NCBI RefSeq assembly: GCF_003334815.1
Contig: NZ_QOWO01000083.1
DNA length: 3,340 nucleotides
Reading direction: 5' to 3' (one strand)
Origin: Escherichia coli
GTDB taxonomy: Bacteria > Pseudomonadota > Gammaproteobacteria > Enterobacterales > Enterobacteriaceae
Shown here piece by piece: positions 1 to 3,340 of the stretch (positions are counted from its first letter, which is position 1; each line of letters starts with the position of its first letter). The notes under the pieces were generated by a model. That model had not been told where the DNA came from. It saw only the letters and a list, made by a program, of their open reading frames with translations, and ran no database searches. The position numbers and the translations under genes are program-made.

Positions 1-102
1 GCTGAACTGTTGCTGGAAGACTACAAAGCCTCCCTGAAATATCTCAGCGATCACCCGAAACTGCAGGGTATTGCCCAACAGAACAGCTTTAAACATACCT
101 GA
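1..102 (+). CDS. gadB: 3' end of glutamate decarboxylase (partial; N-terminus lies upstream of the window)
   Basis: Frame 1 is open from base 1 and translates to [33 protein letters not shown], ending at TGA 100-102 with a second in-frame stop TAA at 103-105. This matches my memory of the E. coli GadA/GadB C-terminus; gadB rather than gadA is inferred because gadC follows directly. Identity is from recall, not a search. Confidence 0.85.
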
Positions 103-122
103 TAACGTTTAACGGTAACGGT

Positions 123-148
123 GTCCCGAAACGAACCCGTTTCGGGAC
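123..148 (+). other. Stem-loop in the gadB-gadC intergenic RNA: 11-bp perfect stem (GTCCCGAAACG / CGTTTCGGGAC) with 4-nt loop AACC, no U-tract after it
   Basis: Direct reading: bases 123-133 are the exact reverse complement of 138-148. The downstream sequence is AATTTCC, so it is not a canonical intrinsic terminator; it could be a partial attenuator, a processing site, or a 3' stabiliser of the gadB message. Confidence 0.5.
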
Positions 149-191
149 AATTTCCAAAGTCTGTTCACTGGCATTAGCAACGGAAAATATT

Positions 192-212
192 GTTCTGAAT
201 ACGCTTCAGAAC
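192..212 (+). promoter_or_regulatory. Perfect 8-bp inverted repeat GTTCTGAA-N5-TTCAGAAC in the gadC leader
   Basis: Direct reading: 192-199 is the reverse complement of 205-212, with spacer TACGC. It sits about 45 nt upstream of the gadC start. Function is unknown; it could be an RNA hairpin or a dimeric protein-binding site. Confidence 0.3.
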
Positions 213-246
213 AAAACAGGTGCGGTTCCGACAGGAATACCGTTTT

Positions 247-252
247 AGGGGG
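247..252 (+). promoter_or_regulatory. Shine-Dalgarno sequence for gadC (AGGGGG)
   Basis: Purine-rich AGGGGG ends 5 nt before the ATG at 258, which is canonical spacing. Confidence 0.7.
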
Positions 253-257
253 ATAAT

Positions 258-1793
258 ATGGCTACATCAGTACAGACAGGTAAAGCTAAGCAGCTCACAT
301 TACTTGGATTCTTTGCCATAACGGCATCGATGGTAATGGCTGTTTATGAATACCCTACCTTCGCAACATCGGGCTTTTCATTAGTCTTCTTCCTGCTATT
401 AGGCGGGATTTTATGGTTTATTCCCGTGGGACTTTGTGCTGCGGAAATGGCCACCGTCGACGGCTGGGAAGAAGGTGGTGTCTTCGCCTGGGTATCAAAT
501 ACTCTGGGGCCGAGATGGGGATTTGCAGCGATCTCATTTGGCTATCTGCAAATCGCCATTGGTTTTATTCCGATGCTCTATTTCGTGTTAGGGGCACTCT
601 CCTACATCCTGAAATGGCCAGCGCTGAATGAAGACCCCATTACCAAAACTATTGCAGCACTCATCATTCTTTGGGCGCTGGCATTAACGCAGTTTGGTGG
701 CACGAAATACACGGCGCGAATTGCTAAAGTTGGCTTCTTCGCCGGTATCCTGTTACCTGCATTTATTTTGATCGCATTAGCGGCTATTTATCTGCACTCC
801 GGTGCCCCCGTTGCTATCGAAATGGATTCGAAGACCTTCTTCCCTGACTTCTCTAAAGTGGGCACCCTGGTAGTATTTGTTGCCTTCATTTTGAGTTATA
901 TGGGCGTAGAAGCATCCGCAACCCACGTCAATGAAATGAGCAACCCAGGGCGCGACTATCCGTTGGCTATGTTACTGCTGATGGTGGCGGCAATCTGCTT
1001 AAGCTCTGTTGGTGGTTTGTCTATTGCGATGGTCATTCCGGGTAATGAAATCAACCTCTCCGCAGGGGTAATGCAAACCTTTACCGTTCTGATGTCCCAT
1101 GTGGCACCAGAAATTGAGTGGACGGTTCGCGTGATCTCCGCACTGCTGTTGCTGGGTGTTCTGGCGGAAATCGCCTCCTGGATTGTTGGTCCTTCTCGCG
1201 GGATGTATGTCACAGCGCAGAAAAACCTGCTGCCAGCGGCATTCGCTAAAATGAACAAAAATGGCGTACCGGTAACGCTGGTCATTTCGCAGCTGGTGAT
1301 TACGTCTATCGCGTTGATCATCCTCACCAATACCGGTGGCGGTAACAACATGTCCTTCCTGATCGCACTGGCGCTGACGGTGGTGATTTATCTGTGTGCT
1401 TATTTCATGCTGTTTATTGGCTACATTGTGTTGGTTCTTAAACATCCTGACTTAAAACGCACATTTAATATCCCTGGTGGTAAAGGGGTGAAACTGGTCG
1501 TGGCAATTGTCGGTCTGCTGACTTCAATTATGGCGTTTATTGTTTCCTTCCTGCCGCCGGATAACATCCAGGGTGATTCTACCGATATGTATGTTGAATT
1601 ACTGGTTGTTAGTTTCCTGGTGGTACTTGCCCTGCCCTTTATTCTCTATGCTGTTCATGATCGTAAAGGCAAAGCAAATACCGGCGTCACTCTGGAGCCA
1701 ATCAACAGTCAGAACGCACCAAAAGGTCACTTCTTCCTGCACCCGCGTGCACGTTCACCACACTATATTGTGATGAATGACAAGAAACACTAA
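258..1793 (+). CDS. gadC: Glutamate:gamma-aminobutyrate (GABA) antiporter, APC superfamily, acid-resistance system 2
   Basis: Uninterrupted 512-codon ORF (511 aa plus TAA) with a strong SD. The translation is highly hydrophobic with many predicted transmembrane segments. The N-terminus [22 protein letters not shown] and the His/basic-rich C-terminal tail ending [10 protein letters not shown] match my memory of E. coli GadC (XasA). Position directly after gadB fits the gadBC operon. Confidence 0.96.
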
Positions 1794-1817
1794 CCATGTC
1801 TGAATGGTTATAAGACA

Positions 1818-1846
1818 AGGGAGCGATAATTCATCGCTCCCTTTTT
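1818..1846 (+). terminator. Rho-independent terminator of the gadBC transcript
   Basis: Direct reading: 10-bp GC-rich stem AGGGAGCGAT (1818-1827) / ATCGCTCCCT (1833-1842), 5-nt loop AATTC, then a run of five T (1842-1846). It starts 25 nt after the gadC stop codon. Confidence 0.8.
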
Positions 1847-1862
1847 CGTGCTTGCTGTCGTA

Positions 1863-1891
1863 TTGACTTAACGGGGATAAGTACGAGAATG
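1863..1891 (+). promoter_or_regulatory. Candidate sigma70-type promoter for the downstream lipoprotein gene: -35 TTGACT (1863-1868), about 16-bp spacer, -10-like GAGAAT (1885-1890)
   Basis: Direct reading. The -35 matches consensus at 5 of 6 positions and the -10 at 4 of 6, including the conserved A2 and T6. It lies between the gadC terminator and the 1924 start codon. The -10 is weak, so this is speculative. Confidence 0.25.
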
Positions 1892-1923
1892 AGCGCACAT
1901 CTGTTTACCGGAAACCAGCACAT

Positions 1924-3243
1924 ATGGATATCTGCTCCCGAAACAAGAAATTAACGATTAGAAGACCAGCGATACTAGTTGCACTGGCACTTTTACTGTG
2001 TAGTTGTAAAAGCACGCCTCCAGAGTCCATGGTGACACCACCAGCAGGTTCAAAGCCACCAGCCACGACGCAACAATCGTCACAACCGATGCGTGGCATC
2101 TGGCTGGCCACGGTTTCTCGGCTCGACTGGCCACCGGTTTCCTCGGTTAACATTAGTAACCCCACCAGCCGGGCCCGTGTACAACAACAGGCGATGATCG
2201 ACAAACTGGATCATCTGCAACGTCTCGGCATAAACACGGTCTTTTTCCAGGTCAAGCCGGACGGTACCGCCCTGTGGCCATCGAAAATTTTGCCGTGGTC
2301 CGATCTTATGACCGGTAAGATTGGTGAAAATCCGGGTTACGATCCGCTGCAATTTATGCTCGACGAAGCCCACAAGCGTGGGATGAAAGTACACGCCTGG
2401 TTTAACCCCTATCGCGTATCGGTTAATACGAAGCCCGGTACTATCAGGGAACTGAATAGCACTCTGTCTCAACAACCGGCGAGCGTCTATGTGCAACACC
2501 GCGACTGGATCAGAACGTCTGGCGATCGCTTTGTCCTCGACCCGGGCATCCCTGAGGTTCAGGACTGGATCACATCAATAGTCGCAGAAGTGGTTTCCCG
2601 CTATCCCGTAGATGGCGTGCAGTTTGACGACTATTTCTATACGGAGTCACCGGGTTCACGGCTAAATGATAACGAAACGTACCGTAAATACGGAGGCGCA
2701 TTTGCGTCAAAAGCAGACTGGCGGCGCAACAATACTCAGCAGTTAATTGCAAAGGTATCGCACACCATTAAAAGCATTAAGCCGGGAGTCGAATTTGGTG
2801 TTAGCCCGGCAGGCGTGTGGCGTAACCGATCACACGATCCGCTCGGTTCCGATACCCGAGGCGCGGCAGCCTATGACGAATCCTACGCTGACACCCGTCG
2901 ATGGGTGGAACAAGGATTGCTGGATTACATTGCTCCCCAAATTTACTGGCCGTTCTCACGGAGTGCCGCGCGTTATGACGTGTTGGCAAAATGGTGGGCG
3001 GATGTCGTTAAACCGACCAGGACCCGCCTGTATATCGGTATCGCCTTCTATAAAGTGGGTGAACCTTCAAAGATAGAGCCAGACTGGATGATTAACGGCG
3101 GCGTACCGGAACTGAAAAAGCAGCTCGATCTTAACGATGCTGTGCCCGAAATTAGCGGCACCATCTTGTTCCGTGAGGACTATCTGAATAAACCGCAGAC
3201 TCAACAAGCGGTCAGCTATCTGCAAAGTCGCTGGGGCAGTTAA
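1924..3243 (+). CDS. digH: Outer-membrane lipoprotein with a glycoside-hydrolase-like family 10 (GHL10) domain; divisome-associated glycan hydrolase YddW/DigH
   Basis: Uninterrupted 440-codon ORF (439 aa plus TAA). The N-terminus has a basic n-region (SRNKKLTIRR), a hydrophobic core (PAILVALALLL), and a Cys-containing lipobox-like motif (LLCSC), followed by a Pro/Ser/Thr-rich linker. The rest is a soluble domain rich in aromatic and acidic residues, typical of a TIM-barrel glycosidase fold. Size and position next to gadC match E. coli yddW as I recall it. There is no in-frame start between the upstream stop (1864-1866) and ATG 1924, and none between 1924 and the lipobox, so the start is well constrained even though the SD is weak (GGAA about 10-13 nt upstream). 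Confidence 0.9.
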   Translation: MDICSRNKKLTIRRPAILVALALLLCSCKSTPPESMVTPPAGSKPPATTQQSSQPMRGIWLATVSRLDWPPVSSVNISNPTSRARVQQQAMIDKLDHLQRLGINTVFFQVKPDGTALWPSKILPWSDLMTGKIGENPGYDPLQFMLDEAHKRGMKVHAWFNPYRVSVNTKPGTIRELNSTLSQQPASVYVQHRDWIRTSGDRFVLDPGIPEVQDWITSIVAEVVSRYPVDGVQFDDYFYTESPGSRLNDNETYRKYGGAFASKADWRRNNTQQLIAKVSHTIKSIKPGVEFGVSPAGVWRNRSHDPLGSDTRGAAAYDESYADTRRWVEQGLLDYIAPQIYWPFSRSAARYDVLAKWWADVVKPTRTRLYIGIAFYKVGEPSKIEPDWMINGGVPELKKQLDLNDAVPEISGTILFREDYLNKPQTQQAVSYLQSRWGS

Positions 3244-3276
3244 ACTCCCATTCTTACTTTGTACTGATGAATCCCC

Positions 3277-3300
3277 TAATGATTTTTATCAAAATCATTA
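3277..3300. promoter_or_regulatory. Perfect AT-rich palindrome TAATGATTTT-N4-AAAATCATTA in the intergenic region downstream of digH
   Basis: Direct reading: 3277-3286 is the exact reverse complement of 3291-3300, with spacer TATC. It is too AT-rich and lacks a GC stem and T-run, so it is not a convincing intrinsic terminator; a dimeric regulator-binding site in the next gene's promoter region is more likely. By recalled synteny the next gene would be dosC, whose start is outside the window. Confidence 0.3.
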
Positions 3301-3340
3301 AGTTAAGGTAGATACACATCTTGTCATATGATCAAATGGT

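Follow-up and report, generated by a model that had tools for sequence, protein, structure and literature searches.

The question raised by this locus is whether the 3' end of gadC encodes the C-terminal plug (C-plug) that blocks the glutamate/GABA antiporter GadC at neutral pH and undocks at acid pH, and whether that segment is complete here. The window, that is, the whole stretch of DNA that was analysed (3,340 bases), is a segment of the Escherichia coli chromosome with the wider gene order pqqL-gadB-gadC-digH-dosC-dosP. When the window was compared by megablast with 5,426 complete E. coli genomes, the region was found in all of them, and 5,396 cover at least 80% of its length. Many E. coli genomes are identical to it (100%) over positions 1-3263, where they carry features annotated as gadB or gad, gadC and digH. 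The gene and the two segments at its 3' end are as follows:

258..1793, plus strand: gadC coding sequence from the list of open reading frames, 511 codons and a TAA stop, encoding a glutamate/GABA antiporter of the APC superfamily.
1578..1664, plus strand: last hydrophobic segment by Kyte-Doolittle hydropathy, approximately residues 441-469, the final transmembrane helix directly before the tail.
1668..1790, plus strand: C-terminal tail of GadC (the 'C-plug' domain), residues 471-511, placed from the translation and from published deletion boundaries.

By its sequence, the product of 258-1793 (plus strand) is E. coli GadC, and the reference protein itself rather than a relative of it. It aligns at 511 of 511 residues, the tail included, to the chain of PDB entries 4DJI and 4DJK, which bears the title 'probable glutamate/gamma-aminobutyrate antiporter'. 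At the protein level the crystallised E. coli GadC (XasA) does not differ from the gadC product of the window, and its genomic context, pqqL-gadB-gadC-digH-dosC, is the same. The product passes TIGR00910, the NCBIfam equivalog model for GadC, with 1029.7 bits against a cut-off of 673.5; residues 1-511 correspond to profile positions 1-511 of 511, and this end-to-end match indicates that the curated model takes in the GadC tail. The RefSeq coding sequence at the matching position (WP_000246019.1, GadC) spans the same bases. The operon partner of gadC is also in place, as the C terminus of GadB is encoded at positions 1-102 of the window and RefSeq annotates gadB or gad directly upstream in matching genomes.

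In the gadC frame, positions 1668-1793 comprise codons 471-511 and the stop codon. Hydropathy was computed in 19-residue Kyte-Doolittle windows with a threshold of at least 1.6. The final run of windows reaching this threshold covers residues 441-469 and peaks at 2.83, and windows with a start at residue 460 or beyond never exceed 0.05. A hydrophilic extension of about 40 residues past the last transmembrane helix is a mark of the C-plug, and the extension found here has 41 residues with no hydrophobic window after residue 469. In terms of composition, GRAVY is -0.88 for the tail against +1.00 for residues 1-470. The tail holds four His (491, 495, 502 and 511), compared with nine in the whole of GadC, as well as two Arg (497 and 499) and four Lys, and its acidic residues are only one Asp and one Glu. 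By the hypergeometric distribution, the probability of at least four His within 41 of 511 positions is 0.003, and that of at least ten His, Arg and Lys residues in the tail is 0.0003, although much of this enrichment reflects the presence of a soluble tail on a membrane protein.

These results agree with the original prediction, made from the letters of the DNA alone, on each point of description. The tail peptide that it quoted is found exactly and in frame; the last 40 or so residues are, as it stated, hydrophilic, with several His, Arg and Lys, after the final hydrophobic segment; and the segment lies after the last hydrophobic helix and not within one. The tail had also been called intact, free of truncation and frameshift, and the reading frame indeed runs without interruption and encodes residues 1-511 with 100% identity to 4DJI/4DJK. 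Alignment to the crystal-structure sequence had been proposed as a check, and it leaves every plug residue as in the characterised protein.

The C-plug in the GadC crystal structure was reportedly described by Ma et al. in 2012. The boundary of the tail used here coincides with that of published constructs: GadC-deltaC consists of residues 1-470 (PMC3663535; PMC8989999), that is, it lacks exactly residues 471-511; 'GadC-deltaC41' has the last 41 residues removed (PMC11610993); and a DEER study takes residues 471-511 as the C terminus (PMC9407458). In the GadC structure at pH 8, as discussed by Ma et al. 2013, the transporter is inward-facing and the C-plug blocks the path (PMC3663535). At pH 8, residues 471-511 sit within the intracellular cavity, from which acid pH dislodges them (PMC9407458). 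Transport by wild-type GadC is undetectable once the pH is 6.5 or higher; without the plug, activity returns at pH 6.5 and the pH profile moves upward, by 0.5 unit with Glu and about 1 unit with Gln as the substrate (PMC3663535).

The movement of the tail has been followed directly in nanodiscs by del Alamo et al. 2022, with a construct that derives from O157:H7 gadC in a Cys-less background and is not the exact sequence of the window (PMC9407458). Detachment of the tail is cooperative, with a pKa of 6.07 +/- 0.11 measured by DEER for the pair L143C in the core and E480C in the tail, and a label at V505C gains mobility with a pKa of 6.30 +/- 0.04 as measured by CW-EPR; both values coincide with the pH at which GadC transport stops (PMC9407458). 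After the plug has detached, TM1 and TM6 enter the vacated cavity and outward-facing states are sampled (PMC9407458). Published work on this sequence, or on one nearly identical to it, has thus demonstrated the docked position, the undocking by acid and the upward pH shift upon deletion. Together with the identity of the gadC product to the crystallised sequence, the DEER and EPR work implies that the tail encoded here occupies the cytoplasmic vestibule when the pH is neutral or alkaline and is detached at acid pH.

We therefore consider it nearly certain that positions 1668-1793 encode the cytoplasmic C-terminal autoinhibitory domain of GadC (the C-plug, residues 471-511), which blocks the transporter at neutral pH and undocks in acid. 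There is no evidence against the identification itself. The claim that the C-plug occludes the path at neutral pH and is displaced at acid pH, which the original prediction had made from general knowledge of GadC, is borne out by the published structure, deletion and DEER/EPR results. Its further step, from an intact tail to a functional and pH-gated antiporter, holds only in part. Normal gating is to be expected of an intact tail, but function does not follow from it, since plug-less GadC transports well; that GadC is functional follows from the identity of the whole reading frame to the characterised protein. Plug-less GadC has in fact been used deliberately, in the engineering of GABA production (PMC11610993) and in fluorescent fusions (PMC8989999).

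The first alternative to be weighed is that the tail is a disordered hydrophilic extension without a gating role, and that substrate protonation and the transmembrane core account for the whole pH dependence of GadC. GadC-deltaC retains a strong dependence on pH, as its transport of Glu is lost at pH 7 or above and its transport of Gln also drops as the pH rises (PMC3663535). The loss of Glu transport is attributed to the fact that only Glu(0) and GABA(+) are carried by GadC (PMC3663535). The retained pH dependence of GadC-deltaC means that the plug is a modulator and not the sole gate of the pH dependence of GadC, but it does not deprive the tail of a role: deletion of the tail moves the pH profile by 0.5-1 unit (PMC3663535), and cooperative detachment of the tail from its docked state at neutral pH, at a pKa of about 6.1-6.3, matches the shut-off of transport (PMC9407458). 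An extension without a gating role is therefore already contradicted by published deletion and EPR data, and we regard it as very improbable, also in view of its conservation.

In order to describe this conservation, we used a homologue search (E-value of 1e-30 or lower), which returned 1,143 proteins, and an alignment of 26 sequences, namely E. coli GadC and 25 orthologues at 72-81% overall identity. These come from named Proteobacteria (Yersinia, Proteus, Morganella, Providencia, Serratia, Acinetobacter, Halomonas, Alcaligenes, Orrella, Lampropedia and others) and from unnamed metagenome proteins. The alignment delimits one further segment within the tail:

1725..1766, plus strand: conserved plug core, residues 490-503, from the 26-sequence alignment.

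All 26 sequences share H491, F493, H495, P496, A498 and R499, while conservation reaches 92% at I482 and 88% at both R497 and H502. The E. coli residue is matched at a mean identity of 0.75 across residues 490-503, which compares with 0.44 in the stretch 471-489, 0.26 in 504-511 and 0.77 in residues 1-470. The C-plug motif GHFF(L/I)HPRAR is found at residues 490-499. Judged from the alignment, the plug consists of a variable tether that carries a conserved core, GHFF(L/I)HPRARS.H. The poor conservation of the linker (residues 471-489) and of the last eight residues would fit a tail without a gating role, but six core positions that are invariant among orthologues differing by 19-28% overall are unexpected for a functionless disordered tail.

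The tails of the proteobacterial orthologues are approximately 40-57 residues long and share the core GHFF(I/L)HPRARS(T/P)H(H/Y). They differ from E. coli in having Ile in place of Leu494 (81%), His in place of Tyr503 (85%) and His in place of Gln485 (81%), and most have Val/His where E. coli has Glu480/Pro481. The last eight residues of the E. coli tail are unrelated to theirs in both sequence and length. The orthologues mostly have more tail His than E. coli, an example of such a His-richer tail being ...HIKTHNAP.GHFFIHPRARSTHH... The departures of the E. coli tail from the orthologue consensus (positions 480, 481, 485, 494 and 503) leave it with fewer titratable His than most of its relatives. 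It is conceivable, though in our judgement rather unlikely, that the number and placement of tail His tune the undocking pKa between species, in which case the plug would be an evolvable pH set-point.

More distant relatives were surveyed by an exhaustive search of 1.84 billion cluster representatives. Glu/GABA-type antiporters at 30-50% identity, including an Enterococcus cluster, have the same 12-helix APC/LeuT-type core. At 44% identity or below, most have only 4-17 residues past the last helix and the plug motif is absent; these many short-tailed homologues would also suit a tail without a gating role. A few antiporters at 41-49% identity carry a weaker motif, F.(H/K)PRGR, and such a plug might conceivably reflect an older and wider origin of autoinhibition. 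Plug-like motifs of the forms HFFHPRGR, FVKPRGR and FIHPRGR were observed among the relatives P0125, P0149 and P0202 (41-49% identity). AdiC (PDB 3OB6, 3LRB, 5J4I and others) also shares the 12-helix APC/LeuT-type core with GadC; its chains are 445-453 residues long, and its alignment to GadC stops at GadC residue 385.

A second alternative is that the tail mainly serves another purpose, besides or instead of plugging, such as the docking of a partner (GadB, for instance) or action as a folding, sorting or turnover signal. The move of GadB to the membrane at low pH may be counted in favour of such a role. Functional fluorescent GadC fusions were obtained only after removal of residues 471-511 (PMC8989999), which implies that a free C terminus matters for something structural, but this result is equally explained by a bulky tag that hinders docking and undocking of the plug, no partner is reported in the cited GadC papers, and purified GadC alone, in proteoliposomes and nanodiscs, displays the plug effect (PMC3663535, PMC9407458), so that we consider this alternative the least probable of all.

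Taking the tail as an autoinhibitory plug, the mechanism is best described as follows. Near neutral cytoplasmic pH, the tail is folded back and docked in the vestibule of the inward-facing 12-helix transporter, where it blocks the substrate path and keeps the intracellular gate from closing, so that no exchange takes place. As the cytoplasm acidifies (pKa of about 6.1-6.3), the tail undocks and becomes disordered. We infer that the trigger is protonation of the conserved His 491, 495 and 502, together with the loss of contacts made by the HPRAR core; a role of the tail His as pH sensor would fit both a pKa near 6 and their conservation. No mutagenesis of the GadC tail His was found in the searchable literature. 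Control by pH has at least two layers, of which the plug is one and the protonation state of the substrates is another.

Of the 5426 complete E. coli genomes, 5393 carry the 261-base stretch that surrounds the tail, with at least 80% coverage and an identity of 95% or higher. Among the shorter E. coli and Shigella proteins inspected (P0030, P0010, P0003, P0008 and P0009), there was no C-terminally truncated gadC product: these proteins have an N-terminal truncation, an internal deletion or a frameshift, and their tail is unchanged or carries a single substitution. A GadC of 406 residues with a truncated N terminus, named from Shigella sonnei, represents 1,091 member sequences. This suggests that inactivation of gadC at its 5' end is common in the S. 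sonnei lineage, with the tail unchanged.

On either side of gadC, the operon contributes three further features:

1-102: 3' end of gadB, last 33 codons, from the translation.
122-149: perfect 12-bp inverted repeat with a 4-nt loop (GTCCCGAAACGA / CGTTTCGGGACA region) in the gadB-gadC spacer, from the RNA fold.
1817..1846, plus strand: likely intrinsic terminator of gadBC, a G+C-rich hairpin with an 11-bp stem (AAGGGAGCGAT / ATCGCTCCCTT), a 5-nt loop and TTTTT after it.

GadB, the glutamate decarboxylase encoded upstream in the same operon, also has a His-containing C-terminal segment, with its end encoded at positions 1-99, and this segment is reported to close the protein at neutral pH; it is unrelated in sequence to the GadC plug and belongs to a soluble PLP enzyme. 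The GadB tail carries a penultimate His and closes the enzyme at neutral pH, and in the GadB mechanism His465 reacts with the PLP-Lys aldimine. The closing of the enzyme at neutral pH by the GadB C-terminal tail is also remarked upon in PMC11610993. If this is true for GadB, both genes of the operon end in His-containing, pH-released C-terminal plugs of unrelated sequence.

In the gadB-gadC spacer, positions 103-160 fold with -22.7 kcal/mol (z = -3.7). The hairpin at 122-149 is not followed by a T run and therefore does not readily pass for a terminator; within the gadBC transcript, it could serve in mRNA stabilisation or processing. The hairpin at 1817-1846 starts 24 bases past the gadC stop codon, and the RNA fold of 1794-1860 reaches -22.2 kcal/mol (z = -3.6), with none of 200 shuffles folding as well. 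This hairpin is likely the intrinsic terminator of gadBC. It was absent from the list produced by a simple consensus terminator scan, which may have missed it owing to the ability of the stem to continue into the run of T.

The remainder of the window holds the following:

1924-3243, plus strand: digH (yddW), an open reading frame of 439 residues from the list of open reading frames, annotated by RefSeq as 'family 10 glycosylhydrolase'.
3264-3340: terminus of an IS10 element (Tn10-type, 'ISVsa5') in the digH-dosC spacer, 20 bp past the digH stop codon.

The N terminus of DigH is signal-peptide-like and contains LLLCSC. A comparison of DigH with NCBIfam returned no family at an E-value of 1e-10 or lower. 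Most E. coli genomes cease to match the window at position 3263, and the alignment breaks exactly there. The 77 bases from 3264 to 3340 are identical to Shigella flexneri plasmid NC_002134.1 and to many other plasmids. The Rfam family RNA-OUT matches the minus strand at 3309-3340 with 35.3 bits against a gathering score of 41, falling below it because the match is truncated by the end of the window. The exact digH/IS10 junction occurs in none of the 5,426 complete E. coli genomes. In strain LCP30S3_I3, the same element lies between digH and dosC, likewise oriented and 17 bp further upstream, which suggests independent IS10 insertions in one short spacer. This IS10 end, 20 bp downstream of digH and well outside gadC, is the only local difference between the window and most E. 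coli genomes.

The C-plug of GadC is an already known, textbook feature, and there is nothing new about it in the window. Its presence here matters only as annotation. In general, the C-plug is a well-studied case of a transporter autoinhibited by its own tail, a picture that the window leaves unchanged.
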